This document shows positions 6,970-23,883 of a DNA stretch of 35,026 nucleotides, in pieces. The notes under the pieces were generated by a model, which saw only the letters and a list, made by a program, of their open reading frames with translations, had not been told where the DNA came from and searched no databases. Both the position numbers and the translations under genes were made by a program. The DNA is taken from positions 1-35,026 of the IMG/VR virus record IMGVR_UViG_2698536657_000017; one strand, 5' to 3'. Within the stretch, counting starts at the first letter, position 1, and every line of letters starts with the position of its first letter. Source of the DNA: a virus (Duplodnaviria; Heunggongvirae; Uroviricota; Caudoviricetes).

Positions 6970-6972
6970 TTG

Positions 6973-7532: not shown

Positions 7533-7533
7533 C

Positions 7534-7911: not shown

Positions 7912-7920
7912 AAAAAAACC

Positions 7921-7972: not shown

Positions 7973-7996
7973 GAGCAATTAATGTTTTTTGTTGAA

Positions 7997-8656: not shown

Positions 8657-8672
8657 CTTCTCCCCCTTCTTG

Positions 8673-8760: not shown

Positions 8761-8767
8761 GGTGGAT

Positions 8768-8977: not shown

Positions 8978-8995
8978 TGTTCTGCCGGAGGCTGT

Positions 8996-9289: not shown

Positions 9290-9531
9290 ATGGTGTTGGT
9301 CTTAAAGGTGACCGACGGGCTGAGACCCCACTTCTCAGGATGCACCTGTGTACTACCAAGCTAGTGCATAAGTTGAGAGGGGGGGTAAGGGGGGGAGTGC
9401 CCGTGTGTTAGTGCGAAGCACTGGAACGGGATCTTCCAACAGACGGGTACAGAGGTTAGGTAGATCTCGATCTAAAGGGGCATCCCTGAAAAAACGGACG
9501 TATCAGCAAACTAGTACATCATGGTTAAAAT

Positions 9532-9900
9532 ATGAGAGCTGAACTGAAACAGGTACTAATCAACCTTCTGGAAGAGGAATTCGGACATGGAATGGACAAG
9601 GTCACATTCGACTACGTTCTGCAAAAGAAAATCAAATCTCTGGGCTGTGAGTTGCAACGCTGTTTCACTGTCAGGCTGAAAGGTGATCGCAGGGGATTTA
9701 TCGATCTTCTGGTTATTTCTCCCGATGGTCAGCGTTGCGCAGTTGAGGTGGATAACCGATCGCCCCGTCAGCGTTCACTGATGAAAATTCGAGCGCTTCC
9801 TGAAGGCATTTCGGGATTTGTTTTTCTCCGTGATGGCAAACATCCACAGCGTTATATCGCCGATGGTGTGGATGTCATCCGGGCGACCCGGTTTAAGTAA
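9532..9900 (+). CDS. Small PD-(D/E)XK-like (DUF559/Vsr-like) nuclease-fold protein (122 aa)
   Basis: The motif GFIDLLVISPDGQRCAVEVDNRSPRQRSLMK fits a D...E-x-D/K restriction-endonuclease-like core. The RBS is weak, so the start is uncertain. Confidence 0.55.
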   Translation: MRAELKQVLINLLEEEFGHGMDKVTFDYVLQKKIKSLGCELQRCFTVRLKGDRRGFIDLLVISPDGQRCAVEVDNRSPRQRSLMKIRALPEGISGFVFLRDGKHPQRYIADGVDVIRATRFK

Positions 9901-9933
9901 TCACTGTATCAGCCCTGTCATCGGGAGAATACC

Positions 9934-11592
9934 ATGCTGAATATCAAGCCGAATTTTGCTCAGGAACGTGCGCTGAATATGTTGCGTCATGACTGGAAAA
10001 CATATCAGTCCTTCATGATGTACATGCCTACAGGGAGTGGTAAAACCGGCCTGGCGGCGTTCATCACTGCTGGTCTGGTAAGCCGTGGCATGCGCGTTCT
10101 GTTTGTCGTTCCTTATACCATTTTGATCAACCAGACAGCACAGCGCTTTGTTCAGTACGGGCTTTCCGGGGATGAAATCAGCTTTATCTGGCGTGATCAT
10201 CCCAATAACGACCCGTCACGACTGATTCAGATTGCCAGTGCGGATACGCTGATTCGCCGTGATTTTCCTCAGAATATCGACCTGCTGATTATTGATGAAG
10301 CTCATCTCCGTAAGCGCCGCATCCTCACGGAAATCGAACGACTGGTTGCAGAGGGAAATGTGAAGGTGATTGGGTTGTCCGGTACACCCTTTTCATCGTT
10401 CCTGGGGCGTTATTACCAGCGTCTTCTCAAGCCGACCACTATAGGGGAACTGATCCAGCGTGGCGAACTGAGCAATTACGAATTTTATGCGCCCACGAAA
10501 CCGGATCTGGAAGGTGTAAAAACGAAAGTCTCAATGGAGTACGGCAGGGATTACGACGAATCACAACTGGCAGAGATTATGTGCGGCGCGGATCTGGTTG
10601 GCGATATTGTCGATAACTGGCTGTGTAACGGAAGGGATTTACCGACAGTGGCGTTCTGCGTCAATAAAACGCATGCCAGCTTCGTGACCATGCAGTTCAA
10701 CAAAGCCGGAATTAACGCAGAGGTGATGGTTGCTGAAACGCCACATGATGAGCGTCAGTTAATGATCAGTCGTTTTGAAACGGGAGCGACGAAAATCATT
10801 GTCAGCGTTGGCGTTCTGGTGGCGGGATTTGACAGTGATGTCCGGTGCATCATTTACGCACGCCCGACAAAATCAGAGATTCGCTGGCTTCAGGCGATTG
10901 GGAGAGGATTGCGTACAGCGCCAGGCAAGGAGTCATGCCTGATTTTCGACCATTCCGGTACGGTTCATCGCCTGGGATTTCCTGAAAATATTGAGTATGA
11001 CGAACTGCCCGGCAAAAACGACGGGATGCAGGTGTCATCATCACGTGGTAACGAAATTCGGGAAGAAAAACTGCCGAAAGAATGTCCGGGGTGTCATTTC
11101 ATGAAACCGGCAGGTGTTTATGTCTGTCCGAAATGCGGATTTAAACCGCTGGCTGGTGAGGATGTGAACACAGATACCCGCCGCAATATCAGGAAACTCA
11201 GCAAGGACGAAAAAATTTACACCAAAAGCGACAAACAGGCCTGGTGGAGTCAGATCAAATTCTATCAGCGTCAGCGTGCCTCTCTGGGGCGACCGGTCAG
11301 CGATGGATGGTGCGCTCACACTTTCCGGGAGAAGTTCGGCGAATGGCCTGACGGGCTGAGCAGTTTTCCGATGGAAATCACCCCGGAGGTCAGTAATTAC
11401 ATCAGACACAAATTCATCCGGTTTGCCAGAGGGCGTAGCCGGGCAGAGAAGATGACGGAAAAATCCCCCGAAGCGCTTTCTCTGTCCCTGCTTCATGGTG
11501 TCCGGTCTGGGGTGCCGGAAGGCAGTGAGTCGTGGCAGATCATGCAGGCAAAGCAACAACTTCAGAAAAACAGAAACAGTCTGAGTCAGTAA
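9934..11592 (+). CDS. SF2 DEAD/DEAH-box replicative helicase (552 aa) with a C-terminal CxxC...CxxC zinc ribbon
   Basis: Walker A MPTGSGKT, motif II IIDEAH, motif III SGTP, motif VI QAIGRGLR. Zinc ribbon CPGCHFMKPAGVYVCPKCG. GGAG RBS. Confidence 0.9.
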   Translation: MLNIKPNFAQERALNMLRHDWKTYQSFMMYMPTGSGKTGLAAFITAGLVSRGMRVLFVVPYTILINQTAQRFVQYGLSGDEISFIWRDHPNNDPSRLIQIASADTLIRRDFPQNIDLLIIDEAHLRKRRILTEIERLVAEGNVKVIGLSGTPFSSFLGRYYQRLLKPTTIGELIQRGELSNYEFYAPTKPDLEGVKTKVSMEYGRDYDESQLAEIMCGADLVGDIVDNWLCNGRDLPTVAFCVNKTHASFVTMQFNKAGINAEVMVAETPHDERQLMISRFETGATKIIVSVGVLVAGFDSDVRCIIYARPTKSEIRWLQAIGRGLRTAPGKESCLIFDHSGTVHRLGFPENIEYDELPGKNDGMQVSSSRGNEIREEKLPKECPGCHFMKPAGVYVCPKCGFKPLAGEDVNTDTRRNIRKLSKDEKIYTKSDKQAWWSQIKFYQRQRASLGRPVSDGWCAHTFREKFGEWPDGLSSFPMEITPEVSNYIRHKFIRFARGRSRAEKMTEKSPEALSLSLLHGVRSGVPEGSESWQIMQAKQQLQKNRNSLSQ

Positions 11593-11593
11593 G

Positions 11594-12562
11594 ATGAAAA
11601 CAGCAGAAGCAGCGAAAGGCCACTGGCCTGAAATTTTAAAACATTACGGACTGCCGCCAGTCACGGGTAAAAAGCACTTCAAAGGGGAATGTCCGGTTTG
11701 TGGTGCCAGAGGTAAGTTCCGTATTGATGACCGTGATGGCACCGGAACGTGGATCTGTGTTTGTGGTAGCGGTGACGGCATGAAACTGATCGCTCTGACA
11801 CAAAAAAGAGCGTTTCATGAAATTTGCGCTGAAATAGACCGCATCACGGGGAATGAATACCGGAGAGATAAACCGCCTGTGATCTGTACGTCGGAAAGCC
11901 TGAGATCGCGCATTCAGCGTCGATTTTCAGCGCTCACGTCGCTACAGGGAACATCTGGTGCTGAATATCTTCGTTCCCGTGGCATATTCAGTCTTCCGGT
12001 TGAGGGAGTTCGCTTCAACAGCCAGCAAAATTATAACGGGCGCATGTTCCAGTCTCTTTATGCCCTGGCGACCGACGACAAGGGAGAACTGTGTTACCTG
12101 CATCAGACATTGCTTGATGGAGCTAAAAAAGCAGACATTGGTATCAGCGCCAGAAGGCTCAAATCTTTACAGGACGATAACTATCTGGACCATGCCCGGT
12201 CAGTTGCTATCAGGATGTTTCCGGTAGCCAGTACACTGGGTATAGCTGAAGGTATCGAAACCGCGTTGTCCGCACATCAGATTTACAAAGTAAATACCTG
12301 GGCAACCATTAACAGTGGTTTTATGAAAAAGTTCCGCGTACCGGCGGGAGTCACCCATCTGATTATTTTTGCCGATCGCGATGAATACAGTGCTACCGGA
12401 ATGGCTGCGGCCTGTGAATGCGCACATGCAAATCTCCAGGCCCGAAATGACATTCAGCGGGTAAGTGTCCGGTGGCCTGATCATGATGATTTCAACAATA
12501 TGCTCATGAACGGCGATCAGGTTCGGGAACTGGTTTTTTACAGAAAAAAGGCGGTTGCGTGA
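11594..12562 (+). CDS. Phage/P4-type primase: zinc-binding domain plus Toprim (322 aa)
   Basis: N-terminal HWPEILKHYGLP...GECPVCGARGKFRIDDRDGTGTWICVCG is typical of primase zinc-binding domains. Toprim-like acidic motifs (GIAEGIETALS, IIFADRDE) follow. It is adjacent to the helicase. Confidence 0.85.
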   Translation: MKTAEAAKGHWPEILKHYGLPPVTGKKHFKGECPVCGARGKFRIDDRDGTGTWICVCGSGDGMKLIALTQKRAFHEICAEIDRITGNEYRRDKPPVICTSESLRSRIQRRFSALTSLQGTSGAEYLRSRGIFSLPVEGVRFNSQQNYNGRMFQSLYALATDDKGELCYLHQTLLDGAKKADIGISARRLKSLQDDNYLDHARSVAIRMFPVASTLGIAEGIETALSAHQIYKVNTWATINSGFMKKFRVPAGVTHLIIFADRDEYSATGMAAACECAHANLQARNDIQRVSVRWPDHDDFNNMLMNGDQVRELVFYRKKAVA

Positions 12563-13425
12563 TGCGTACGGACAATCAGGTACATAAAGCTTTATTCACT
12601 ATCCCGACGGCAGCGTACAGCGCCGTTCCGGCAAATATCAAACCTCTGCCAGAACAAAGGAGGATCACCGGACATAAACAGACAGATGCTTATCTCTGGA
12701 TTCTGGAGGTTATTCACCTGAACGAGGCCGTACATCTGGACGCAGCCGAAGCAGCACTGGAGAAACTCAAAATAACGCCGGAAGAAGCGAGTGAACGGTA
12801 TGGACGTTATTTGCAGGAGATTAATGTTGATCCTTTCCAGATTGCTTTCGCAACCATAGGCATAGATAACCCGGCGCAGGCGATCAGGAATGCCCGTGAG
12901 AATATCAAAAAAGCCGCATCAGTCAGGGCCACATTTGGCAGCTATGAGGCAGCACTCGATGATGTGGAGGCTGAGCGGATAATTCGCACCTCCCCGAAAT
13001 TTATCGACGATTACTACTGGGGCTGGACTGCGGCAGAGAAAAAAGCCGGAAGTATTGACGGTGTTCGCTCAAATGAAATTGATGATCAGCGTCGTGCATA
13101 TGTTGATGGCTATCGTGATGTACTGCCAGAGCCTCATACATTGTCAGACGTTGTTCGTGAGTTTATTTACTGGGACTGGCTTTATGAGATGCGCCAGACA
13201 GCGGGGAGAGAAACAGGGGACAAATACGGTTTCACAGGTGAACATCATGAGTCAGTATATGATCGGCAGTTCTGGCTCGAAAATTTGCTGGGAAAAATAA
13301 AGCCTGTGACGCGTGATGAAGCGGTTGAAGTGTGTCGCTGGTTTCTGGCAAGCGGAAAAGATGAGTACATGGAAGACAATGGTTCAGCGGTCATTCTCAA
13401 TCTGGTTGGGGAGTGTGAGCAATGA
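12562..13425 (+). CDS. Hypothetical protein (287 aa)
   Basis: The ATG overlaps the primase stop (TGATG). It is a long clean ORF between the replication genes and Q, which is the nin-region position. No family recognised. Confidence 0.65.
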   Translation: MRTDNQVHKALFTIPTAAYSAVPANIKPLPEQRRITGHKQTDAYLWILEVIHLNEAVHLDAAEAALEKLKITPEEASERYGRYLQEINVDPFQIAFATIGIDNPAQAIRNARENIKKAASVRATFGSYEAALDDVEAERIIRTSPKFIDDYYWGWTAAEKKAGSIDGVRSNEIDDQRRAYVDGYRDVLPEPHTLSDVVREFIYWDWLYEMRQTAGRETGDKYGFTGEHHESVYDRQFWLENLLGKIKPVTRDEAVEVCRWFLASGKDEYMEDNGSAVILNLVGECEQ

Positions 13426-13503
13426 AGCCGGAGATATCCAGTAGACATTTTCCCCCTGAGCATTCAAATCAGAAAAAGTATGGTTACAGCGGAGTACAGA
13501 ATA

Positions 13504-13929
13504 ATGCGTGATATCCAACAGGTTCTGTCCCGATGGGGTGCATGGGTGGTAAATAATCATGAGAGTGTGGCATGGTCCGGCGTCGCTGCCGGATTTAAGG
13601 GAGTGATCCCATCAAAGGTTAAATCACGGCCTCAGTGTACCGATGATGATGCGCTGATTATCAGCAATTGCATGGCGCAACTGAACGTCAACAACAGCGA
13701 TTTGCATGATTTTCTGTATGATTATTATGTGTTCGGGATGACGCTTATGGGACTGGGCCGTAAGCATGAGCGCTCTGATTGCTGGGCCGGGCGGGTACTG
13801 CAAAAAGCTGAAGGTGTTATTGAGGGGATGTTGATTATGCAGGGAATAAAACTGGAAATGGACAGATACGTTGAGCGTGAACGATCAGGGGCACAGGTCA
13901 GTCAGTTTTCCGGACATACGGGAAATTGA
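13504..13929 (+). CDS. Q: Late-gene antiterminator Q, phage 82/21 (QuuD-like) type (141 aa)
   Basis: [60 protein letters not shown] matches my memory of Q82/QuuD-family proteins. I preferred this start over 13480 because GGAG lies upstream of it. Confidence 0.85.
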
Positions 13930-13953
13930 AAGCGCGGGGTTTTACTGTAGAAT
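13926..13953 (+). promoter_or_regulatory. Sigma70 promoter (TTGAAA-16-TAGAAT), most likely the hok mRNA promoter
   Basis: -35 at 13926-13931 (overlapping the Q stop codon) and -10 at 13948-13953. The predicted start at about 13961 coincides with GGTGCTTGAGG, which resembles the conserved 5' end of hok-family mRNAs. Confidence 0.55.
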
Positions 13954-14019
13954 GACTGCGGGTGCTTGAGGGTGTCTGCCTCGGGCATGCTGCCGTAAGG
14001 CAGACGGAGAAAAGCCCCA

Positions 14020-14080
14020 GTTAACATTACGCGTCCTGCAAGACGCTTAACATTAATCTGAGGCCAATTTCATGCTGAAC
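14020..14080 (-). ncRNA. sok: Sok-like antisense RNA (boundaries approximate)
   Basis: Minus-strand promoter TTGCCT-17-TAACCT (-35 at 14110-14115, -10 at 14087-14092) points into the hok leader. The transcript would be complementary to the upstream in-frame ATG (14072) region. It contains the hairpin GCGTC-N6-GACGC (14031-14046). Confidence 0.4.
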
Positions 14081-14128
14081 ACATGTAGGTTAGCCTCTTA
14101 CGTGCCGAAAGGCAAGGAGAAGCAGGCT

Positions 14129-14284
14129 ATGAAGCAGCAAAAGGCGATGTTAATCGCCCTGATCGTCATCTGTTTAACCGTCATTCTGACGGTACTGGTA
14201 GCGAGGAAAGACCTCTGCGATGTACGAATCCGAACCGGCCAGACGGAGGTCGCTGTCTTCGTAGACTACGAATCTGAGAAGTAA
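14129..14284 (+). CDS. hok: Hok/Gef-family type I toxin, HokD/RelF-like (51 aa)
   Basis: MKQQKAMLIALIVICLTVILTVLVARKDLCDVRIRTGQTEVAVFVDYESEK is near-identical in pattern to RelF/HokD as I remember it. AAGGAG RBS. The upstream leader resembles the hok mRNA fold-back elements. An in-frame upstream ATG at 14072 occupies the mok position. Confidence 0.9.
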   Translation: MKQQKAMLIALIVICLTVILTVLVARKDLCDVRIRTGQTEVAVFVDYESEK

Positions 14285-14458
14285 GAGACCTGGCGGGGGA
14301 GTAATCTCCCGCCCCCTCTGATGTGTCAGGCATCCTCAACGCACCCGTACTTTAGTTGTCATATGCTCCGCAAAATGCAGGTTGTCGTTGCAACCCGTGC
14401 GGTAATTTTTTGTGTGCGAGTGCTCAAAAAACGTTGATTTTCATAAAAGGACGATTTT

Positions 14459-16543
14459 ATGCTGCCAGACCAGCGACCAGCGACCAGCGACCGTAAATCA
14501 AGAAAGTCTGTAAAATCTGTTGAACCAGACATTGCCGACCGGGCTAACAACTGGCTCAAATCTTATGGACTTGATTACAAACTGGAGCAGGCACCACTTA
14601 ACAACGAGATCGATAACGCACTGGATGCTTATTTTTCGAAAAATGGCGGCACAGGCGGTAATCGTCCCGACGTAAAACTCCTTGTTCAGGACAAATACGG
14701 CAAGCAGTATCCCGTTCTCATCGAGTATAAAGGCTACAAGGACAGGCTTATCAGACTTGGCAGCAACGGTATTATTGAGAACAAAGATGCCAGAAAAGAA
14801 TGGAATTTTAAAAATATTAATGGATACGCGGTGAATGGCGCAGTCCATTATGCCAACGCACTTCTTCAGTTCACCAATTACCCTGATATTATTGCTATTG
14901 GTATGACCGGCTGGCGCGATGATGGTACAGGCGAACTGCATCATGAAATCGGCGTGTGGTACGTATCAAAGAATAATTTAGGAGCCGGGCAGAAGGTTGG
15001 TGAATTCACCGACTTATCGTTCCTTGCTGACAAAAATGTTGATGGATTTCTCAACAAGATAAAGCTGCTTAATCTTCCTCCCGAAGAACTGGAAAAAATC
15101 AAGGCCAGCAAAGAGGAAGAGATAGACACGCGACTTTCCCGTCTGAATAACGATATTTACCAGAATGAAAAGGGGCTTGGTGAAAGCGATCGTGTTTACC
15201 TTGTTGTGGCTACCGTTATTGCAACGTTGGGGATTCCGGGAAAGTTAGCACCGCTGGATAAAAAAGAACTGACCTCTTCAACGGAGGAGGACTTGCGTGA
15301 TGGTGATATTATTTTCAGGAAAATAAGGAATTTTTTAAGGCTGAAAGCTGTTCCTGAAACAAAAAGAGAAATGATTTTGCGCTCGTTGCAAAATACGCTG
15401 TGGACTGAAAACATTAACAAACCAGTCAACGGTGAAAGCCAGTTAAAGCGCGTGTTTGTTAAAGTTGTTGATGATCTTGGGGAGTATTACAAAATCGGAC
15501 TGACCACTGATTTTACGGGCAAACTGTTTAATGAGATGTATCGCTGGCTTGGATTTACGCAGGACAAACTCAATGACGTCGTTCTGACACCACCTTATGT
15601 TGCCACATTGCTGGCACGACTCGCCAGAGTAAACAAAGATTCCTATGTGTGGGATTTTGCTACAGGTTCTGCGGGATTGCTTGTGGCTGCAATGAATGAA
15701 ATGCTCATTGACGCCAGAGAAAATATTCACTCACCGAATGAACTACAACTTAAGGAAGCGCAAATCAAGGCTGAACAGCTTCTTGGCCTTGAGGTGTTAT
15801 CCAGTATTTATATGCTGGCCATCCTGAATATGATTTTGATGGGGGATGGTAGCTCGAATATCCTCAATAAAGACTCGCTAGCCGATTTTGACGGCAAGTA
15901 TGGATTTGGGAAAACAGGAGAAAAATTCCCTGCGGACGCATTTATTCTCAATCCTCCGTATTCAGCTAAAGGTAACGGCATGATTTTCGTGCAGAAGGCG
16001 CTGTCGATGATGGATAAAGGCTATGCTGCAGTGATTATCCAGAGTTCAGCCGGCACAGGAAAGGCTACGGAGTACAACAAAAAAATACTCAAGGAAAATA
16101 CCTTGCTGGCAAGCATCAAAATGCCTGCGGATCTGTTTATTGGTAAATCAAGCGTTCAGACGTACATTTACGTTTTTCAGGTAAAAATTCCGCATAACGC
16201 GAAACAGGCTGTTAAGTTTATCGACTTTTCCAATGACGGCTATGCTCGCTCTAATCGCAAAAAGGCAAGAAACAATCTTGTTGATGCCGATCGTGCAAAA
16301 GAGCGTTATCAGGAGGTTGTGGATCTGGTTCACTTCGGGAAAGGTTGCCTTAATATCTTTACGGAGGATGAATATTTTGAGGGAACAATCGATCCTGATA
16401 GTGGTGAGGACTGGAATCAGACCAGGCCAGTAGATGCTAGGCCAACGCTGGATGATTTCAAAAAGACGGTAGGTGATTACCTTGCATGGGAGGTCTCGCA
16501 ATTACTGAAAAAACAAGGTGAAAACAATTTTGCGGGAAAGTAA
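14459..16543 (+). CDS. Fused PD-ExK nuclease plus gamma-class N6-adenine DNA methyltransferase, BcgI-A-like RM subunit (694 aa)
   Basis: N-terminal D71-X17-E89-x-K91 (NRPDVKLLV...PVLIEYKG, nt 14666-14731). MTase motif I DFATGSAG (15653-15676) precedes motif IV NPPY (15950-15961). AAGGA RBS. It is followed by an HsdS-like gene, and no HsdR-like gene is present. Confidence 0.85.
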   Translation: MLPDQRPATSDRKSRKSVKSVEPDIADRANNWLKSYGLDYKLEQAPLNNEIDNALDAYFSKNGGTGGNRPDVKLLVQDKYGKQYPVLIEYKGYKDRLIRLGSNGIIENKDARKEWNFKNINGYAVNGAVHYANALLQFTNYPDIIAIGMTGWRDDGTGELHHEIGVWYVSKNNLGAGQKVGEFTDLSFLADKNVDGFLNKIKLLNLPPEELEKIKASKEEEIDTRLSRLNNDIYQNEKGLGESDRVYLVVATVIATLGIPGKLAPLDKKELTSSTEEDLRDGDIIFRKIRNFLRLKAVPETKREMILRSLQNTLWTENINKPVNGESQLKRVFVKVVDDLGEYYKIGLTTDFTGKLFNEMYRWLGFTQDKLNDVVLTPPYVATLLARLARVNKDSYVWDFATGSAGLLVAAMNEMLIDARENIHSPNELQLKEAQIKAEQLLGLEVLSSIYMLAILNMILMGDGSSNILNKDSLADFDGKYGFGKTGEKFPADAFILNPPYSAKGNGMIFVQKALSMMDKGYAAVIIQSSAGTGKATEYNKKILKENTLLASIKMPADLFIGKSSVQTYIYVFQVKIPHNAKQAVKFIDFSNDGYARSNRKKARNNLVDADRAKERYQEVVDLVHFGKGCLNIFTEDEYFEGTIDPDSGEDWNQTRPVDARPTLDDFKKTVGDYLAWEVSQLLKKQGENNFAGK
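14468..14492 (+). repeat. Heptanucleotide tandem repeat (GACCAGC) x3.6 inside codons 4-12 of the RM gene
   Basis: Perfect period-7 identity across 14468-14492 (gaccagc gaccagc gaccagc gacc). The unit length is not a multiple of 3. Confidence 0.9.
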
Positions 16544-16602
16544 ATTCCCCGCTCAGCGATAAATTAAGAAGCGTTGAGTGGGGAGAGTTCAGGATTGGCG
16601 AT

Positions 16603-17139
16603 TTGTTCTATGTGAGCACAGGCTCGCTTATCTCCTCAGGAAGATTAAAACCAGGCAAAATTAAACGTGTTTCAGCAAAGAGCGATCAAAACGGTATCAT
16701 CGGAGAGTTTGATACCGAGTTTATGGATGATGCAAGGCATTATGAAAATTTTATAAGCGTTAATTTTTTTGGAGATGCTTTTTATCATCCTTATTGTGCC
16801 AGCGTAGAAATGAAGGTGCATGTTCTTACATTAAAATCAAGTAAGTCCGACTTTAATGCAAAGCGCGGACTGTATGTTGCCAGTATGATTAATAAAGCTT
16901 TAAAGGGGCGTTTTAATTATGGTCAACAGTTATCGAGTTCCAAACTCAGAGATGGAGAATATTTCATCTCATTACCAGTGAAAAATAATGAAATTGACTG
17001 GTTTTTTATGGATAATTATATAGAAGAGCTGGAAGCGGCCCATATAGAAGAGCTGGAAGCTTACTTGCTGGTTAGCGGACTCGCGGACTCGCGGACTCGC
17101 GGACTCGCGGACTCGCGGACTCGCGGACTCGCGGACTGA
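16603..17139 (+). CDS. HsdS-like specificity subunit, N-terminal half (TRD1 plus central helix), terminated inside or after an 8-mer repeat tract
   Basis: The frame is open from 16522. It has the conserved S-subunit N-terminal motif VEWGEFRIGDLF, a TRD-like body, and a coiled-coil FFMDNYIEELEAAHIEELEAYL. It then reads through the repeat as GLADSRTRGLADSRTRGLAD and stops at TGA 17137. The only start codon after the motif region is TTG at 16603. Confidence 0.7.
   Translation: MFYVSTGSLISSGRLKPGKIKRVSAKSDQNGIIGEFDTEFMDDARHYENFISVNFFGDAFYHPYCASVEMKVHVLTLKSSKSDFNAKRGLYVASMINKALKGRFNYGQQLSSSKLRDGEYFISLPVKNNEIDWFFMDNYIEELEAAHIEELEAYLLVSGLADSRTRGLADSRTRGLAD
17018..17060 (+). repeat. In-frame 24-bp tandem duplication (ATATAGAAGAGCTGGAAGC core, x1.8) in the S central helix
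   Basis: Copies at 17018-17036 and 17042-17060 are identical and have a 24-nt period. They encode IEELEAAH/IEELEAYL. Confidence 0.85.
17075..17137 (+). repeat. Octanucleotide tandem repeat (GCGGACTC) x7.9 between the two halves of the S gene
   Basis: There are 7 perfect units at 17075-17130 plus 7 nt of an eighth. The unit length is not a multiple of 3. The flanking ORFs are in different frames (pos mod 3 = 1 upstream, 0 downstream). Confidence 0.97.
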
Positions 17140-17201
17140 TAAGCTATGAGCTTACACCGCAGGAATATAACGCGATTGAGCTATTAAATAGCAATAATCT
17201 T

Positions 17202-17723
17202 ATGTGGGGCACTTATAACCTCAAAAAGTTATTTGGCCCCGCAATAAGAGGTAAGCGTCTGAAAAACGCAGATCGTATTCCCGGATCCTTGCCTTTTGTT
17301 ACTGCGGGTGAAGGCAATGAAGGTATTTCTGCATTTATCAGTAATGATGTTGTTGTATTCCCTGAAAATACCATTACGATAGATATGTTTGGCTCCGCAA
17401 AATACAGAAATTATGAGTATGGTGCAGATGACCATGTGGCAGTTGTTCATACAGAATTCTTTGACAGAAATGCCGTTATTTTCATAACAGCATCAATTCA
17501 TAAGTCTTCTTGTACCGGAAAGTTCAACTACGGGAGAAATTTCTATGCAAAAGATGCCGACGAGTTAATGGTATCTTTGCCGTCAAAAGATAATAACCCT
17601 GATTATTCTTTCATGGAGACGCTAATTTTAGCAGTACATAAACTGGTCATCAAAGATGTTGTCCAGTACACTGATAAAAAGCTGGTAGCGTACAGGCAGA
17701 TTACATCTGAGAAGGTCGTTTAG
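17202..17723 (+). CDS. HsdS-like specificity subunit, C-terminal half (TRD2 plus C-terminal helix)
   Basis: MWGTYNLKKLF parallels WGEFRIGDLF of TRD1. Further parallels are MFGSAKYRNYEYG vs FFGDAFYHPYCAS, and VSLPSKDNNPDYSFMETLI vs ISLPVKNNEIDWFFMDNYI. The frame is open upstream through the repeat tract (...LISYELTPQEYNAIELLNSNNLM). Confidence 0.7.
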   Translation: MWGTYNLKKLFGPAIRGKRLKNADRIPGSLPFVTAGEGNEGISAFISNDVVVFPENTITIDMFGSAKYRNYEYGADDHVAVVHTEFFDRNAVIFITASIHKSSCTGKFNYGRNFYAKDADELMVSLPSKDNNPDYSFMETLILAVHKLVIKDVVQYTDKKLVAYRQITSEKVV

Positions 17724-17845
17724 TGCAAATCCCCACCTGACAGGGTGGGGAATGGTCAGGTTATCGTGCCCTGATGCAGAAAAACAGTTTACAATCGTAA
17801 AAATCATCATATCATGACAAAAGTGGTTACATTGCCACGCAGCCG

Positions 17846-17870
17846 AACCCGCCGATGCGCGGGTTTTTTG
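17846..17870 (+). terminator. Intrinsic terminator
   Basis: AACCCGC-cgat-GCGGGTT followed by a T6 run. Confidence 0.7.
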
Positions 17871-18050
17871 TATCCGGAATCCTGTGAGTTATACGGAAAG
17901 TACACAGAAAGGAAGGTGCGACCGCAATTAATAACAAAATCTTAAAAATTGCATATGGCACTATTAGTTTTCTAAATATTGTATATTTTGAGTATTGCAG
18001 GATATCCCCTGTAACGAAGTTTGCGTAACAGCATTTTACTCTACGAGTTT

Positions 18051-18081
18051 GCCAGCCTCCCCCAGTGGGCTGGCTTTTTTT
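18051..18081 (+). terminator. Intrinsic terminator
   Basis: GCCAGCC-tcccccagtg-GGCTGGC followed by T7. The T-run occurs only in the plus orientation. Confidence 0.65.
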
Positions 18082-18298
18082 ATCTGATGCGCTTCACATC
18101 AGGGTGACGTTCTGTTGCCGCTTCATGGAAAATGTCGCTGAGCCAGCCCGGTATCTCGTCTTCTGTCATATCGTCTGGAATGACAATATCGTATAACCGG
18201 GAGAATTTTCGTTCTGTCAGGTCTGCCCGGAAGACCAGCCAGTGATCACCTTCACGTTTGACACCAATATGTCGACCAAAGACGTTGTAGATTAGCAC
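18080..18298 (-). CDS. Hypothetical small acidic protein (72 aa, GTG start)
   Basis: AAGAGG RBS 6 nt upstream of the GTG. It is the only convincing minus-strand gene inside the rightward late region. No family recognised. Confidence 0.55.
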   Translation of the reverse strand: MLIYNVFGRHIGVKREGDHWLVFRADLTERKFSRLYDIVIPDDMTEDEIPGWLSDIFHEAATERHPDVKRIR

Positions 18299-18485
18299 TA
18301 TCGACCTCTTTCAGGAATTGTGTAACTGAGATGACAGATTCAGATTTCGTCAATAAATGCAAAATGTCAATCCTGAGATCATGGTGAGCTATCTGGCGGT
18401 TTTTTATATCTGTTTAACGGGGGATGTTACATACCTCACAATTCAGTCAGTTGAAGGTTGTCTGCCCGGATGAGAATTTGTTAGA

Positions 18486-18663
18486 AAATTTCTGCATGGT
18501 GAATCCCCCTGAGCGGAGGGGCATATCAGCGACAGGTGGTTGGTTATATCCCTTATCTGGTGCGGGTTCAGGTGCTGATACTGAACTCACCGGGAGGCAC
18601 CCGGCACCATGCAATGAACGGTACATAGCGCTACTCTTCAGCCCCTCTCCGGAGGGGCTTTTT
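18486..18663 (+). ncRNA. Candidate structured RNA / short terminated transcript, unit 1 (ends approximate)
   Basis: Promoter-like TTGAAG (18451-18456) with TGaGAATTT downstream. Closing helix TGCATGGTG (18493-18501) pairs with CACCATGCA (18605-18613). Hairpins CCCCT-N6-AGGGG and CCGGG-aggca-CCCGG. Terminator AGCCCCTC-tccg-GAGGGGCT-TTTT (18640-18663). Confidence 0.45.
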
Positions 18664-18752
18664 AATGAGGGGAAGACACTGGGCAGTGAAATGTTAAATC
18701 ACTCACAATTCAGGTAGTTGACGGTTGTCTGCTTGGCTGAGAATTTGTAAAA

Positions 18753-18939
18753 AAAATCCTGCATGGTGAATCCCCCTGTGCGGAGGGGCGACTGGTGAAT
18801 GGTATGATCTCTTTGATGATCGTAAGCGAGAATACGCGGGTTTGGTGGCACCAGGCCGAACTCACCGGGAGGCACCCGGCACCATGCAGTATACAGAGAT
18901 TAGGCATATACCAAGGCCCCTCATAGCAGGGGCCTTTTT
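18753..18939 (+). ncRNA. Candidate structured RNA / short terminated transcript, unit 2 (ends approximate)
   Basis: Promoter-like TTGACG with TGaGAATTT. Perfect 10-bp closing helix CTGCATGGTG (18759-18768) pairs with CACCATGCAG (18880-18889). It has the same two hairpins as unit 1. It has its own terminator AGGCCCCT-catagc-AGGGGCCT-TTTT (18914-18939). Confidence 0.45.
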
Positions 18940-19157
18940 ACATGCAAAAAAAGCCGCCCCGGGAAGAGCGGTTGGCAAGAAGAAAAGCAATATGAACAAT
19001 TAATTAACGATGGGAATAATACCTTAGAGTAATCACCTTGCGCAACTGTAAGGGCATATTTCATCTTTGCGGGCTGTTTTTCCGGGTGACTTCTGTGTTT
19101 CCGGAGGCCAGCCTGTACCTTCTCTGACTCAGAACATTATCCCGGCCGGGAGGATTC

Positions 19158-21068
19158 ATGGCATTTAAACACTATGACGTGGTCAGGGCGGCGTCGCCGT
19201 CAGACCTTGCGGAACGAATAACTCAAAAACTGAAGGAAGGGTGGCAGCCTTATGGTAGTGCGCTGATTTCGACAGCTGGTTATGGTGCGGAGTTCATCCA
19301 GCCAGTTGTGAGTGAGGGGAGCATCTCATCACCAGAGGAGCCAGGCAACCGTCCGACGACCTCAGCGCCTTCTGTTGCGCCAGAATATTACTATGTGATC
19401 GCGCTTGCTGGTCAGTCCAATGGTATGTCATACGGTGAGGGACTGCCATTACCGGATACATTCGACAGCCCTGATCCACGTATTAAACAGTTAGCGCGTC
19501 GCAGTACGGTGACACCGGGAGGTGCTGCATGTATCTATAACGATATTATCCCGGCAGATCACTGTCTCCATGATGTGGAGGATATGACAGGGCTTAATCA
19601 TCCCAAAGCGGATTTATCGAAAGGTCAGTACGGCTGTGTGGGACAGGGGCTGCATATCGCCAAAAAGCTTCTGCCATTTATACCGGCGAATGCGGGCATT
19701 CTTCTTGTTCCGTGCTGCCGTGGTGGTTCAGCTTTCACCACCGGAACCGATGGCACATACAGTGACACTACTGGCGCCTCAGAGAGTTCCACCCGCTGGG
19801 GGGTGGGCAGGCCGCTGTATAAGGACCTCATTGGTCGTACAAAAGCCGCGCTGGCGAAGAATCCGAAAAATGTGCTGCTTGCCGTGGTATGGATGCAAGG
19901 GGAATTTGATTTTAACGGAACGCCAGCGAATCATGCAGCCCGTTTTACAGAAGTGGTGGATCAATACCGTGCGGACCTTGCAGATATGGCGGGGCAGTGT
20001 GTGGGTGGCTCAGCTGACAGTGTTCCCTGGATTTGTGGAGACACAACATATTTCTGGAAGCAGAAGAACGAAACGGCGTACCAGACGGTGTACGGTAGTT
20101 ACAAAAATAAAACGGAAAAGAATATCCATTTCGTGCCGTTCATGACCGATGAGAACGGGGTGAATGTGCCGACGAACAAACCGGAAGAAGACCCGGATAT
20201 TCCGGATATCGGGTATTACGGTTCAAAATGGCGAACGGACAGAAGCACCTGGACATCTCAGGACAGGGCCAGTCATTTCAGTTCATGGGCTCGCCGTGGG
20301 ATTATTTCCGACCGTCTGGCAACGGCGATTCTGAGCTGCGCGGGTAAGTCTTCTGCGTTTGTTAATGGTACTGCCGGGGTGGTTGTTCCAGACAGACCGG
20401 TTACCACCTCAGAGTCTGTAATTTTTTACGATGCCAAAAAAGCTTCAGACAATCAGCTGAAACCTTATGGCTGGGACGGTATGGATGGCAGACGCACACT
20501 GGTTGATGACAGCGGCAATAAAGCTCTGCGAATTGAGAAAAATAACAGCGCGAAATCCTGGTCAATGTACTGTGATATTGCTGCAGACAAGGCAAAACTT
20601 TTACTGGAAAAAGGCGGGGAAATTGCTGTCCGGTTTAAAATCCCCGAAAACGTCAATCTTGAGACAACCAGAAACAAGTATGCCTTTGGTTTGTACTGGC
20701 GAATAGCGGAATGGCCGGGTGAGGGTGGTGAAGGCTATCTGAGTTCTTTCTTTGTCCAGACAGATAAAGCCAGTATTGATGTTGCATACCATCATACAGT
20801 TAATCAACAAAAAGAACTTGGCACGTTTGGCGCATTCGACCATGACTGGCATACGCTTGCATTTAAATTTAAGGGCAGTAACAGCATTAATGTTACTCCG
20901 GTGCTTGATGGTGTGGATGGACAGGCGTTTGACCTGGTGAAATGGGCCAATACTGCTAATGGACTCAACAGGTTTGTCATTACGGATATTACAGGTAGTG
21001 CAGAAACCTACCCTGTACTTATTGATACGGTGGAAGTTAAAGCAAACAAAGCTGGAGCAGCCGCATAA
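19158..21068 (+). CDS. nanS-p: Prophage sialate O-acetylesterase NanS-p type (DUF1737 N-terminus plus SASA/DUF303 esterase plus C-terminal domain), 636 aa
   Basis: N-terminal MAFKHYDVVRAASPSDLAERITQKLKEGWQPYGS (DUF1737-like). Esterase block YYYVIALAGQSNGMSYGEG with the GQSN motif. The size and the position downstream of the Q/stx slot match NanS-p genes of Stx phages, from memory. Confidence 0.85.
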   Translation: MAFKHYDVVRAASPSDLAERITQKLKEGWQPYGSALISTAGYGAEFIQPVVSEGSISSPEEPGNRPTTSAPSVAPEYYYVIALAGQSNGMSYGEGLPLPDTFDSPDPRIKQLARRSTVTPGGAACIYNDIIPADHCLHDVEDMTGLNHPKADLSKGQYGCVGQGLHIAKKLLPFIPANAGILLVPCCRGGSAFTTGTDGTYSDTTGASESSTRWGVGRPLYKDLIGRTKAALAKNPKNVLLAVVWMQGEFDFNGTPANHAARFTEVVDQYRADLADMAGQCVGGSADSVPWICGDTTYFWKQKNETAYQTVYGSYKNKTEKNIHFVPFMTDENGVNVPTNKPEEDPDIPDIGYYGSKWRTDRSTWTSQDRASHFSSWARRGIISDRLATAILSCAGKSSAFVNGTAGVVVPDRPVTTSESVIFYDAKKASDNQLKPYGWDGMDGRRTLVDDSGNKALRIEKNNSAKSWSMYCDIAADKAKLLLEKGGEIAVRFKIPENVNLETTRNKYAFGLYWRIAEWPGEGGEGYLSSFFVQTDKASIDVAYHHTVNQQKELGTFGAFDHDWHTLAFKFKGSNSINVTPVLDGVDGQAFDLVKWANTANGLNRFVITDITGSAETYPVLIDTVEVKANKAGAAA

Positions 21069-21207
21069 TTGCTAAAAAAAGCCGCCAGCGGCAGGAATGG
21101 AAGCTGGCGGAGGTAATCCCAATGGAGAATGTAAAGAAAAGATGCTTTCGTACATTGGTTTTTTAAATGAAAACAGTTCTCATTGTCAACCATAACGGTA
21201 AGAAATT

Positions 21208-21390
21208 ATGATATTTATTCATCAGGTGATGCTGTACTTCTGTACGGCGGTCTGTGTGCTGTATCTTCTTTCGGGTGGGTACAGGGCAGTGCGCGATTTC
21301 TGGCGCAGGCAGATTGATAAAAGGGCCGCTGAGAAAATCAGCGCCAGTCAGTCAGCCGGAAGCAAACCCGAAGAGCCCGTTACTCCTTAA
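21208..21390 (+). CDS. Hypothetical small membrane protein (60 aa)
   Basis: One hydrophobic helix (VMLYFCTAVCVLYLLSGG) followed by a charged tail. It sits between nanS-p and the lysis genes. Confidence 0.5.
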   Translation: MIFIHQVMLYFCTAVCVLYLLSGGYRAVRDFWRRQIDKRAAEKISASQSAGSKPEEPVTP

Positions 21391-21415
21391 CAACCCCTTT
21401 CAGCGAGAAAATCCC

Positions 21416-21688
21416 ATGTCAGAAATTACATCCCTGGTCACTGCAGAGGCAGTGAAGGAAGTCCTGCGCTCTGAAGAAGTCCGGAGCGCACTGAAACAGA
21501 AACTTCGCCAGAATCTTGAGGCGCGTCTTGATGCAGAAGTTGATGCCATTCTGGATGAGCTGCTTGGTGTACAGGCAGAGCCACCGACTGAAGCGGGAGA
21601 TACCACCGCAGAGAGCGGTGAAGTTCAGCCTGAATCACCGGTCGCCGATGCGACTGAACCTCAACCCGAATCGGTCATGATGCTGTAA
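21416..21688 (+). CDS. Hypothetical acidic protein (90 aa)
   Basis: I chose the start [15 protein letters not shown]. The longer track ORF overlaps the previous gene in another frame. Confidence 0.55.
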
Positions 21689-21764
21689 CGAGGAGTCAGG
21701 GCCATCAGTAAACGGCTGCTGGCCTTTTTCATGTTGTGAGCTTCCGGATTGCGGGAGACGGGGT

Positions 21765-21980
21765 ATGTACCAGATGGAAAAAATCACAACAGGTGTGTCA
21801 TACACCACGTCAGCGGTGGGAACGGGCTACTGGTTCCTGCAGTTGCTGGACAGGGTTTCCCCGTCTCAGTGGGCGGCAATAGGCGTGCTGGGGAGTCTGC
21901 TGTTTGGGCTGCTGACATATCTGACGAACCTGTATTTCAAGATTAAAGAAGACCGGCGTAAGGCGGCGCGGGGAGAGTAA
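21765..21980 (+). CDS. S: Class II holin, S21 (pinholin)-type, with a dual-start motif (71 aa)
   Basis: [71 protein letters not shown] closely parallels phage 21 S as I remember it. Met1/Met4 give a potential antiholin/holin pair. Confidence 0.9.
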
Positions 21981-21984
21981 GCTG

Positions 21985-22518
21985 ATGAGCAGGAAATTCC
22001 GCTATGGTTTATCAGCGGTCGTTCTGGCGCTGATTGCTGCAGGTGCTTCTGCGCCTGAAATCCTCGACCAGTTTCTTGACGAAAAAGAAGGTAACCACAC
22101 CACGGCATACCGTGATGGTGCGGGTATCTGGACCATCTGCCGTGGTGCCACCCAGGTGGATGGTAAGCCTGTCGTCCCCGGCATGAAGTTGTCGAAGGAA
22201 AAATGCGACCAGGTTAACGCCATTGAACGTGATAAGGTGCTGGCATGGGTGGCGAAAAACATCAGAGTGCCACTGACCGAACCTCAGAAAGCGGGGATCG
22301 CGTCATTCTGTCCTTACAACATTGGCCCCGGTAAGTGTTTCCCGTCGACGTTTTATAAACGAATTAATGCAGGCGATCGCAGGGGAGCGTGTGAAGCGAT
22401 TCGCTGGTGGATTAAGGACGGTGGCAGAGACTGCCGTATCCGCTCAAATAATTGCTACGGTCAGGTATCCCGTCGCGACCAGGAGAGTGCGCTGGCATGT
22501 TGGGGTATCGACAGGTAG
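21985..22518 (+). CDS. R: SAR endolysin, GH24 lysozyme (177 aa)
   Basis: N-terminal weakly hydrophobic signal-anchor-release segment (YGLSAVVLALIAAGASAP). The catalytic region EGNHTTAYRDGAGIWTICRG is typical of R21/P1 Lyz-type lysozymes. Confidence 0.92.
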   Translation: MSRKFRYGLSAVVLALIAAGASAPEILDQFLDEKEGNHTTAYRDGAGIWTICRGATQVDGKPVVPGMKLSKEKCDQVNAIERDKVLAWVAKNIRVPLTEPQKAGIASFCPYNIGPGKCFPSTFYKRINAGDRRGACEAIRWWIKDGGRDCRIRSNNCYGQVSRRDQESALACWGIDR

Positions 22519-22606
22519 CAGAATATTTTGCTGAAAAATAACGTTGGTCAACGCGGACGGATAACACGAAATCCTGCGAACTGGCAAAACCTAAGTGAAT
22601 AAAAGT

Positions 22607-22646
22607 AAAAACCCCGTTTTTGGCAGCAAGCGGGGTTTTGTGTTTA
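22607..22646 (+). terminator. Intrinsic terminator-like hairpin inside the lysis cassette
   Basis: CCCCG (22612-22616) pairs with CGGGG (22631-22635), with additional inner pairing, followed by TTTTGTGTTT. An A-run upstream makes it potentially bidirectional. Confidence 0.5.
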
Positions 22647-22710
22647 TGGCAGTAAGCTATGGGTGGCTGCCTTGATTGATTTTAGCAAACTGATTAGGGA
22701 GTTGCGACTC

Positions 22711-22806
22711 ATGATTAGTCAATTACCAAACTGGAAGTTTTTGCTGGTCTGGAGCATCCCTTTTTTATGGGGGGTATCCCAGTTAATTGTGGCAATTAAG
22801 GGGTAG
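22711..22806 (+). CDS. Candidate small hydrophobic peptide (31 aa)
   Basis: Hand-translated MISQLPNWKFLLVWSIPFLWGVSQLIVAIKG, with GGGAG upstream. It is below the ORF-track cutoff. Confidence 0.3.
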   Translation: MISQLPNWKFLLVWSIPFLWGVSQLIVAIKG

Positions 22807-22808
22807 CT

Positions 22809-22940
22809 ATGTCAGACAAACTCATAACGCTGGCGAAGATCCTCTGTGTAATCGTCGGCATTTCATTTTCACTAATGCTGGTTGCTATTTTTCTTTTCCT
22901 GCCCTGGATGATGTTGTCTTCGTCGGGGATGCTGGGGTAA
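22809..22940 (+). CDS. Candidate small single-TM peptide (43 aa)
   Basis: Hand-translated MSDKLITLAKILCVIVGISFSLMLVAIFLFLPWMMLSSSGMLG, with AAGGGG upstream. It starts 2 nt after the previous small ORF's stop. Confidence 0.35.
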   Translation: MSDKLITLAKILCVIVGISFSLMLVAIFLFLPWMMLSSSGMLG

Positions 22941-23122
22941 CAGTGACTGATGACATCAGCAGAGCGCTGGCTTTGCTATTAAGTGGGTGGCGGTTGGTAT
23001 CGCTGTGTCTCCGATACTGTATGGGCTGGCAAAACTGGTCATTGCGCTGAAATCGTGAACTTTATTTAAACAGATGAGTAATGAAATTGCTGTACTGGTC
23101 CGGGCAATTCGCTGGTGGTGAT

Positions 23123-23584
23123 ATGAACCGTATTCTGTATGTGGTGATTATTGTACTGCTGGTGGCCTGTGGTGCGCTTAGTCTGGGGCTGAATCATTAC
23201 CGCGATAACGCCATCACCTACAAAGCGCAGCGCGATAAAAAAGCCAGAGAGCTGGAGCTAGCAAACGCAACCATTACTGACATGCAGCAGCGCCAGCGTG
23301 ATGTTGCTGCGCTTGATGCCAGATACTCAAGGGAATTAGCCGATGCGAGAGCTGAAAATGAAACTCTGCGCGCTGATGTTGCCGCTGGTCGTAAGCGCCT
23401 GCGGATCAACGCCACCTGCTCCGGTACCGTGCGTGAAGCCCCCACCACCTCCGGCGTGGATAATGCAACCGCCCCCCGACTGGCAGACACAGTTGAACGG
23501 GATTATTTCACTCTCAGAGAGCGGTTGATGCTGATGCAGAAGCAGCTGGAAGGGGCACAGGACTATATCCGCACTCAGTGCTGA
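23123..23584 (+). CDS. Rz: i-spanin Rz (153 aa)
   Basis: N-terminal TM ([18 protein letters not shown]) followed by a coiled-coil periplasmic domain, with an Rz1 gene embedded in the +1 frame. I chose the start MNRILY. Confidence 0.85.
23343..23528 (+). CDS. Rz1: o-spanin Rz1 lipoprotein (61 aa), embedded in Rz
   Basis: Lipobox LVVSAC. The proline-rich mature part [27 protein letters not shown] is nearly identical to lambda Rz1 as I remember it. Confidence 0.88.
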
Positions 23585-23883
23585 ACTAAGTTTTGCTGAT
23601 GCGCCGTATCGTCGCCGTATTCCCGCATAAACAGAGACCGCAGCCACCTTATCTGCGTGAGTGTGCGGGGGTAATCAAAAACGATGCACACCGGGTTTTC
23701 TCATTTTTCACGAGATGGGAGCGATTTCCCGCGAAGCCGCCTGTCCGGTGCGGTGGTGGAAGAAACCGGATAAAACAACCTCATTGTACAAATATCGATC
23801 AAGTATGGCGCTGCTGTGTGAATTCTGAAAAATCACAGCGGTCATTATGCGTCAGTTTTTAACAGAGGACGTCAGAAAGTGAC

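Follow-up and report, generated by a model that had tools for sequence, protein, structure and literature searches.

Modular organisation of the Q to nanS-p interval in a stx-less lambdoid Escherichia coli prophage

The locus described here raises the question of whether restriction and toxin-antitoxin genes have taken over the place that Shiga toxin (Stx) genes occupy in related phages. The DNA is the IMG/VR virus record IMGVR_UViG_2698536657_000017 (positions 1 to 35,026), and this whole stretch of 35,026 nucleotides is referred to as the window. Between the gene for an antiterminator Q (named Q* here) and the sialate O-acetylesterase gene nanS-p, the initial annotation had listed a hok/sok unit, a restriction-modification (RM) system, a minus-strand gene of 72 amino acids (aa) and tandem RNA units. 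All of these were present. It had also regarded the interval as a single late-transcribed cargo slot of an Stx phage, reused for defence rather than for virulence. The analysis, which was based on homology, module boundaries, co-occurrence with stx, repeat polymorphism and reading-frame states, led to a different account. With a probability of roughly 0.7 for this explanation as a whole, the window is a mosaic lambdoid Escherichia coli prophage of the Stx-phage lineage, made up of interchangeable modules and lying next to the host gene rcsB. The prophage is a rare but ordinary lambdoid mosaic, a rare recombinant of module types that were already known.

The RM block and the stx slot

Pairwise BLAST against more than 15 loci revealed sharp breakpoints at 13504, 13947, 14354, 16497, ~17004-17067, 17780, 18081, 18400/18424 and 18690, in agreement with the earlier description of the interval as modular. 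The records inspected were nine annotated RM-bearing records (eight complete E. coli genomes and phage PhiR12_3) and 25 IMG/VR loci. The first module, at 13504-17780, reads as one block that comprises Q*, a hokD-like hok/mok/sok unit and a BcgI-like RM system of two genes. The configuration was not a common one that had already been annotated. Among 5426 complete E. coli genomes, 30 (0.55%) had the Q*-hok-RM block, in every case in the chromosome and with an identity of about 98.5%; it was also found in one of 50,697 phage records, that of PhiR12_3 from ECOR13, and two alternative regions were found upstream of the block (helicase-toprim-orf288 or helicase-DUF7146-DUF1367-NinG-NinH). The DNA segment with the 72-aa gene, which encodes a DUF7661 protein, was present in 2 (0.04%) of the complete genomes, in both of which it directly follows a Q933 gene with its pR' unit, and an RM system is absent. 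The block and DUF7661 occurred together in none of the 5426 genomes and in two draft assemblies (GCA_053799855.1 and GCA_012553485.1), which were found through contigs carrying the identical DUF7661 protein; GCA_053799855.1 demonstrated 99.19% identity over window positions 11121-25294.

The content downstream of the block differed between relatives, and at least three of the 30 block-bearing genomes also carried stx1c, stx2b or stx2c there. The block was followed by stx1c in 2013C-3033 and in the IMG/VR locus L034, by the ileZ-argN-argO tRNA genes and stx2b in 04-00955, and by tRNA genes, stx2c and iraM in OkiPb01714, while only tRNA genes were found in E2855, tRNA genes and terB in 09-00049, and nothing in CFIAFB20190167, JNEC-KY174, L028 and L035. 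Because an identical block lies upstream of stx1c, stx2b and stx2c in these relatives, the RM system is no substitute for stx, and hok and the RM genes make up a module of their own, upstream of the toxin slot and independent of it. The picture of defence genes placed in the same slot instead of virulence cargo is thereby corrected, as the RM/hok module accompanies the toxin genes in some clinical isolates.

These alignments place the stx slot of this phage lineage after the second tR' terminator and before the first STnc100 small RNA (sRNA) unit. All relatives diverged from the window immediately after the T-run of that terminator, the 933W counterpart of which is annotated upstream of the tRNA genes. 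The position of stx1c in phiSTEC1589-Stx1c (19906-21399) and in 2013C-3033 corresponded exactly to window positions 18084-18423, and in empty-slot phages the first STnc100 unit lay within ~20 nt after the terminator. The states of the slot in relatives were empty (L005 and L010 as well as L028 and L035), stx1c, tRNA genes with stx2b or stx2c, tRNA genes alone, and tRNA genes with terB. In the window, only a 318-bp cassette with the DUF7661 gene holds the exact stx position, where phiSTEC1589-Stx1c and 2013C-3033 hold stx1c (~1.5 kb). Such a map of the slot helps to interpret the gain and loss of stx in the genomics of Shiga toxin-producing E. coli (STEC). Searches of the whole window by tblastn and blastn with Stx1c and Stx2b gave a best E value of 0.3, no stx remnants were found in the window by tblastn and short-word blastn, and ARAGORN found no tRNA genes in it, which bore out the earlier report that stxA, stxB and tRNA genes are absent.

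At 18068-18092 and 18391-18418 the cassette was flanked by an imperfect direct repeat of ~20 nt (CTGGC..TTTTTTAT..CTG), which suggests that the cassette entered an empty site rather than taking the place of stx. The repeat duplicates the 3' half of the tR' terminator, and empty-slot phages carry one copy of it. Homologues of the DUF7661 protein with 65-90% identity were encoded by lone core-chromosome genes in Klebsiella, Rahnella, Pantoea, Dickeya and others, and the gene is read here as a moron captured from an enterobacterial chromosome. The AlphaFold2 model of the protein was of very high confidence (pLDDT 94.8), showed four strands, a helix and a strand, and had no significant match in the PDB. 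DUF7661 is a well-defined small protein family that is conserved across Enterobacterales.

The original proposal, that the whole interval from Q to nanS-p is one late cargo slot in which hok/sok and the RM system replaced stx and tRNA genes, is very unlikely in view of these results. It fits the absence of stx and tRNA genes and the presence of defence-type genes between Q and nanS-p, all of them on the late-gene strand downstream of Q, but it is contradicted by the coexistence of the identical block with three stx types, by the position of the RM system upstream of the 933W-type late promoter pR' and of stx downstream of it, and by the occupation of the stx site itself by DUF7661. The prophage could also be a recent toxin-loss derivative of an Stx1c phage, with the DUF7661 segment merely replacing stx, and this explanation is considered unlikely. 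An empty-slot state exists, the direct repeat points to insertion into an empty site, and DUF7661 also follows the Q933 gene directly in prophages without the RM block (the identical protein was found on 837 contigs), all of which count against toxin loss in spite of the conserved slot flanks, the 99.2% identity to phiSTEC1589-Stx1c from 18424 to the end of the window and the 92.5% identity across the pR' segment; the direction of exchange cannot be inferred from any of these.

Late promoter, hok/sok unit and small RNA units

The Q* protein was 64% identical to Q of 933W and 95% identical to Q of the Stx1c prophage in 2013C-3033. Its nearest relatives in isolated phages, apart from PhiR12_3, were Q933-type Q proteins (64-68% aa identity), so the earlier designation as a Q82/21-type Q was right at the level of the family (PF06530) only. 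In 933W-like phages Q directly abuts pR', whereas Q* ended at 13929 and pR' was found at 17788. The only unit homologous to the annotated pR', qut and tR' elements of 933W was located downstream of the RM system, where window positions 17780-18083 aligned at ~93% with the features annotated in NC_000924 (pR', qut and two rho-independent terminators). The promoter was TTTACG-16-TATCAT in 933W and TTTACA-16-TATCAT in the window, and promoter and terminator scans recovered the pR' and tR' elements independently of homology. Every RM-bearing locus retained the pR' unit directly after the gene for the specificity (S) subunit, at 89-96% identity. Homology to 933W, phiSTEC1589-Stx1c and JNEC-KY176 began at 17780, which is within the 3' end of their Q gene, so the first 21 nt of this segment are a remnant of a former Q933 gene.

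With the 933W-type unit downstream of the RM system, hok and the RM genes are probably upstream of the late promoter. It is proposed with moderate confidence that they lie between Q and the real late promoter, and with the same confidence that, of the interval, the pR' transcript includes no more than the DUF7661 region, the STnc100 units and nanS-p. The description of the whole interval as late-transcribed was therefore not retained, as pR' and its terminators (17788-18083) follow the RM genes and the promoter beside Q is that of the hok mRNA. In the Stx phages of strain Sakai the pR'-tR' unit makes the sRNA StxS in lysogens, and Q acts there after induction (PMC7547250); the short pR'-tR' transcript unit was conserved in the window. 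As to promoter use, we infer that in the lysogen the pR'-qut-tR' unit would make a short StxS-like RNA constitutively and that, after induction, Q-modified RNA polymerase would start a terminator-resistant late transcript there, in which the DUF7661 region would be read antisense. The hok and RM genes would not be cargo of pR' and would be expressed from their own promoters and by read-through of the early transcript that makes Q. Action of Q* at the 933W-type pR' is plausible.

The hok/mok/sok locus is predicted to be a type I toxin-antitoxin unit by its genes and by the Rfam model, with a Hok/Gef toxin open reading frame (ORF), an overlapping mok and a conserved structured leader and antisense region. 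It was ~90-93% identical to hokD-type loci. In comparison with hokW-sokW of the Stx2 prophage Sp5 and hokD of Qin, which are in the nin region, the window hok was found immediately after Q. Prophage-borne hok/sok aids phage release, as described for hokW-sokW of Sp5 (PMC8621323). On its own, the hokD-type element (13947-14354) was present in 4711 of the 5426 genomes. Homology to hokD-type loci started at 13947, so that the -10 hexamer of the promoter next to Q* was included, and the same -10 and transcribed sequence were found at the nin-region hok of O157, which has no Q gene nearby. Since generic hok DNA makes up both the -10 hexamer and the transcribed region of the promoter at 13926-13953, this promoter is assigned to the hok mRNA, and for the same reason it was rejected as a candidate for pR'.

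The opposite assignment, in which Q* would use the promoter overlapping its own stop codon as the late promoter, would make late genes of hok, the RM system and everything downstream, and would leave the 933W-type pR' as a redundant relic that makes only a small RNA. In lambdoid phages pR' is normally directly after Q, and the geometry at Q* resembles that of 933W (a -35 element inside the 3' end of Q, score 10/12); Q* was moreover linked to hok in all 30 genomes. This assignment is nevertheless quite improbable, given that from 13947 on the sequence is generic hok-locus DNA found at thousands of sites without a nearby Q, that no clear -10-like pause element was seen by eye in the first 30 nt, and that the 933W-type unit was kept at 89-96% in all RM-bearing loci.

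The tandem RNA units belonged to the STnc100/PasD family. Both copies scored above the RF02076 gathering threshold of 47 bits, and each had a conserved upstream region and its own intrinsic terminator, while the two had diverged from each other (~72-76% identical over the parts that align). Unit 2 aligned with the 933W copy, which lies immediately after stx2B with AsxR on the other strand. STnc100 followed stx in all Stx prophages examined, and the Stx1c prophage had the same two copies. The sRNA has been located 75 nt downstream of stx2 (PMC12370729), and the PasD/STnc100 family has been linked to the esterase gene and Stx phages (Zhu, Shabalina and Storz 2026, bioRxiv 10.64898/2026.05.13.724894). 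The window has the same tie to the esterase gene and to Stx-type phages, and differs by its two tandem, diverged copies. By sequence the units belong to the standard Stx-phage backbone and not, as had been suggested, to a replacement cargo, since 933W and both Stx1c and Stx2 prophages carry STnc100 right behind stxB. Neither AsxR nor AgvB was picked up in the slot by a permissive Rfam scan. Terminator-like sites were enriched (16 against 7.9 +/- 2.9 in shuffles). The terminators that had been called orphan matched the two 933W-type tR' terminators and the terminators of the two sRNA units, and are thus not orphan. An ORF of 97 aa (18424-18717, plus strand; annotated as "hypothetical protein" at 21400-21699 of PQ600364.1, the phiSTEC1589-Stx1c record) coincided with STnc100 copy 1 and is probably no gene.

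RM subunits and repeat tracts

The RM genes show the arrangement of a BcgI-like type IIB (IIB/IIG) system, predicted from a fused restriction-methylase (R-M) subunit and an S subunit with two target recognition domains (TRDs), here encoded in two halves; a fused endonuclease-methylase and a separate two-TRD specificity subunit make up BcgI-type systems. The R-M protein matched the PADLOC profile REase_MTase_IIG with an E value of 7e-234 over residues 17-686, and in Pfam it matched N6_Mtase and, weakly, VRR_NUC. A PD...EYK motif was visible in residues 70-91, so that a nuclease with an N-terminal PD-(D/E)XK motif and a gamma-class N6-adenine methyltransferase are joined in a single polypeptide, as in type IIB. 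The PDB sequence search gave no hit for this subunit. The two halves of S together covered the PADLOC Specificity_II profile and were split by a frameshift in an octamer repeat tract, whereas relatives have an intact S of 361 aa. TRD1 (16497-~17004) and TRD2 (~17067-17780) each occurred as several alleles in varied combinations. At least three TRD1 and at least three TRD2 alleles were seen among RM blocks that are otherwise 98-99% identical, and S of the window combined a TRD1 of the 2013C-3033 type with a TRD2 of the 04-00955 type. The candidate starts of the first half of S were TTG 16603 and GTG 16612. The conserved N-terminal motif EWGEFRIGDLF was encoded upstream of the first in-frame ATG, GTG or TTG (16541-16612), which leaves the start uncertain; a non-canonical start codon or a shortened N-terminus could account for this.

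A heptamer tract, (GACCAGC)n, was located at the beginning of the R-M gene. The ATG at 14459 was preceded by a Shine-Dalgarno sequence (AAGGA, 8 nt before it). Homologues with ~70% identity and no repeats begin 1-9 residues before the conserved VxSVEPxIAD motif, and in locus L038, whose homologue is 87% identical, this ATG is kept and precedes an in-frame proto-repeat of degenerate sequence, GACCAAC-GACCAGC-AACCAGC. These N-termini and the L038 start codon place the tract within the gene, from codon 4 on. A 5'-UTR spacer, as implied by the TTG start in RefSeq, was rejected as the role of the array, since the PADLOC profile and the ~70% homologues reach to within 1-9 residues of it and L038 has its ATG before an in-frame proto-repeat. 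A possible start codon was found upstream of the heptamer in each frame (TTG 14356, GTG 14412 and ATG 14459), only the ATG having a Shine-Dalgarno sequence; as a result, the RM ORF looks "intact" to gene callers whatever the number of repeats. RefSeq calls the enzyme "HsdM" and places the start of its gene at a TTG behind the array, and it lists (GACCAGC)n arrays as minus-strand coding sequences (CDSs) named "YXWGXW repeat-containing protein" or "hypothetical protein" (L004 3542-3982, L009 5479-6009 and L010 5317-6009). The array CDSs and the TTG start look like annotation artefacts caused by the repeats.

Both tracts varied in length. Across 19 related loci the heptamer array measured 17-715 nt (2.4 to 102 copies), and the octamer tract had 4.8-26.8 copies in related loci and occurred only with the TRD2 allele of the window. 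A fused S ORF was found only in locus L038 with 6.8 copies, exactly one unit below the window. Two near-identical prophages (99.2-99.4%) had 2.4 and 10.4 heptamer copies against ~3.4 in the window, and 10.8 and 8.8 octamer copies against ~7.8. The repeats are thus intragenic with units not divisible by 3, their copy number differs between near-identical elements, and in-frame and out-of-frame alleles exist. By sequence, both tracts bear the hallmarks of repeat-mediated phase variation. In this they are like the type I and type III phasevarions of Haemophilus, Neisseria and Streptococcus suis, and they differ from those and from BcgI-type systems in that the window RM system is borne by an E. 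coli prophage, has a tract in each of R-M and S, and belongs to a group with arrays of up to ~100 copies.

For RM activity and actual switching, we infer the following. The copy number of (GACCAGC)n after codon 3 would set the reading frame of R-M, and since the frame is open in the window with only 3.4 copies, its R-M state is likely to be stable. The copy number of (GCGGACTC)n would decide between one two-TRD S subunit and two half-subunits, the window being in the split state one unit from fusion. It is possible, though doubtful, that the Q*-hok-RM block represents a hypermutable type IIB RM system gated by two tracts in E. coli lambdoid prophages, true Stx1c, Stx2b and Stx2c phages included. 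Heptamer slippage would then turn the enzyme on and off, and octamer slippage together with TRD shuffling would switch between the two-TRD S and half-S forms and change the specificity. If so, a phase-variable defence against superinfecting phages and differences in methylation at the level of the population (a phasevarion) would be expected in STEC. No relevant description of an RM or phase-variable system in Stx phages was found in the literature, nor one of such a hypermutable type IIB RM system in E. coli, and a survey of pR' regions (PMC6266700) has no mention of the Q*-hok-RM block. What most deserves further study in the window is this type IIB system with its two gating repeats: it is carried by a prophage, ~0.5% of complete E. 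coli genomes have it, its place is between Q and the promoter of the Shiga toxin genes, and RefSeq routinely mis-annotates it.

Several points weigh against the account of the window given here. The in-frame arrays (5 of 19 R-M alleles, the window included) are close to the one in three expected by chance, and with arrays of up to 102 copies the protein would gain ~230 aa of repetitive sequence at its N-terminus; the gene may therefore be usually off or decaying and not switching. Only one of seven octamer loci had a fused S, and the start of S is ambiguous. Q* is only 64% identical to Q933, and its action at pR' is assumed. For DUF7661, neither PADLOC and NCBIfam (no hit in either) nor the gene neighbourhoods in Klebsiella and Rahnella (no conserved neighbour) gave a function, and the order in which DUF7661 and stx1c arrived in the slot cannot be inferred.

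Backbone, related phages and other features

The features of the window are listed in Table 1. The attribution to an Stx-phage backbone held for the late half and failed for the early half, which was unrelated to that of 933W. Window positions 21100-35026 were 99.6% identical to phiSTEC1589-Stx1c (PQ600364.1) over 100% of the segment, and the blastn match reached back to 18424 (99.2% over 18424-35026, with the two STnc100 copies in common). At least 80% of positions 21100-35026 was covered by 171 phage records, mostly Stx1a-, Stx2a- and Stx2c-converting phages. The early half (1-13450) had only weak matches among isolated phages, yet identities of 98-99% were found with the early regions of the Stx2b prophage in 04-00955, the Stx2c prophage of OkiPb01714 and several stx-less prophages.

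The layout of 933W and other short-tailed Stx phages is Q - pR'/qut/tR' - tRNA genes - stxAB - STnc100/AsxR - nanS-p - S/R/Rz. The window shares with it the pR'/qut/tR' unit (~93%), STnc100 upstream of nanS-p, nanS-p, a lysis cassette with the P21-type holin and the endolysin, and the short-tailed structural genes (terminase, portal, capsid and a collagen-like fibre). Unlike 933W, and unlike Stx-converting phages in carrying neither stxA nor stxB, it has no stxAB, tRNA genes or AsxR, its Q matches that of 933W at only 64% identity, hok and the RM genes put 3.9 kb between Q and pR', and its early (replication) region is unrelated. phiSTEC1589-Stx1c differs from the window in that it lacks an RM system and its Q, of the Q933 type, lies immediately next to pR', and the Stx1c prophage of 2013C-3033 has the same Q*-hok-RM block and two STnc100 copies. 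Among isolated phage records, the Q*-hok-heptamer array-RM block was found only in that of PhiR12_3 (PV340552.1; 98.5% identity), which like the window has no stx; this phage differs in its 83 heptamer copies, which are out of frame where the window is in frame, in a different TRD2 with no octamer tract, in the absence of DUF7661 and in a nanS-p and lysis region only 70-80% identical to the window.

Table 1. Positions, strands and supporting evidence of the features of the window (promoter, terminator and sRNA features are predictions)
Feature	Position	Strand	Evidence or remark
rcsB, host gene, full length	1-651	-	NCBIfam equivalog, 468 bits
Tyrosine integrase	696-1985	-	Directly after rcsB
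ORF6N-domain protein gene	4178-5047	-	Early region
HTH protein gene	7534-7911	-	Early region
CI-like repressor	7997-8704	-	Early region; S24 peptidase domain
Antiterminator Q*	13504-13929 (ORF open from 13480)	+	Pfam PF06530, E 2.5e-45
hok mRNA promoter	13926-13953	+	TTGAAA-16-TAGAAT, 10/12 in promoter scan; -35 overlaps Q* stop codon
hok/mok/sok unit, type I toxin-antitoxin	13947-14354	+	Boundaries from comparison with hokD-type loci
sok model RF01794	13960-14134		Rfam, 108 bits (gathering threshold 59)
mok ORF, 70 aa	14072-14284	+	Overlaps hok
hok	14129-14284	+	Pfam PF01848 (HOK_GEF), E 1.3e-20
Fused R-M subunit, 694 aa	14459-16543	+	PADLOC REase_MTase_IIG PDLC03616; ORF intact, in frame
Heptamer repeat (GACCAGC), about 3.4-3.6 copies	14468-14492		Tandem Repeats Finder; from codon 4 of R-M gene
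S subunit, first half (TRD1 and part of central region)	16603-17139	+	Pfam Methylase_S; PADLOC Specificity_II
Octamer repeat (GCGGACTC), about 7.8-7.9 copies	17075-17137		Tandem Repeats Finder; splits S gene in central region
S subunit, second half (TRD2)	17202-17723	+	PADLOC Specificity_II positions 181-332 of 341; frame open back into octamer tract
Q933-type Q remnant, last 21 nt	17780-17800	+	Right junction of Q*-hok-RM block
pR', 933W-type late promoter	17788-17815	+	933W homology and promoter scan
pR'-qut-first tR' unit (stxS small-RNA unit by homology)	17788-17872	+	
qut-equivalent position	17829-17836	+	Homology to annotated 933W qut
First tR' terminator	17845-17866	+	933W homology and terminator scan
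Second tR' terminator, left edge of stx slot	18051-18074 (feature to 18081)	+	Terminator scan and 933W alignment
DUF7661 gene, 72 aa	18080-18298	-	Pfam PF24697, E 1.2e-28; GTG start, Shine-Dalgarno AAGAGG
DUF7661 cassette, 318 bp	18082-18399	-	stx1c site of related phages
STnc100/PasD-family sRNA unit 1	18424-18690	+	Rfam RF02076, 153.3 bits at 18465-18670; terminator 18640-18659
STnc100/PasD-family sRNA unit 2	18691-18960	+	Rfam RF02076, 199.8 bits at 18732-18945; terminator ~18920-18945
nanS-p sialate O-acetylesterase	19158-21068	+	Pfam DUF1737, SASA, DUF6645
DUF1378 gene	21208-21390	+	Pfam PF07125
P21-type holin S	21765-21980	+	Pfam PF04971
Endolysin	21985-22518	+	Pfam PF00959 (Phage_lysozyme); N-terminus hydrophobic, Ala/Gly-rich

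The nanS-p gene, the S21-type holin and the endolysin named in the initial annotation were confirmed by Pfam matches, and the collagen-like fibre by GXY runs at 33803-34273. In relatives, nanS-p is annotated in RefSeq as a SASA family carbohydrate esterase. In the early region, helicase and primase genes come next after the CI-like repressor gene, and early ORFs of 250-300 aa (2683-3585, 5068-5841 and 12559-13425) had no Pfam or NCBIfam match. The host gene rcsB is followed directly by the prophage integrase gene, and the integration site is therefore just downstream of rcsB; the left attachment site is expected at ~652-695, between the two genes.

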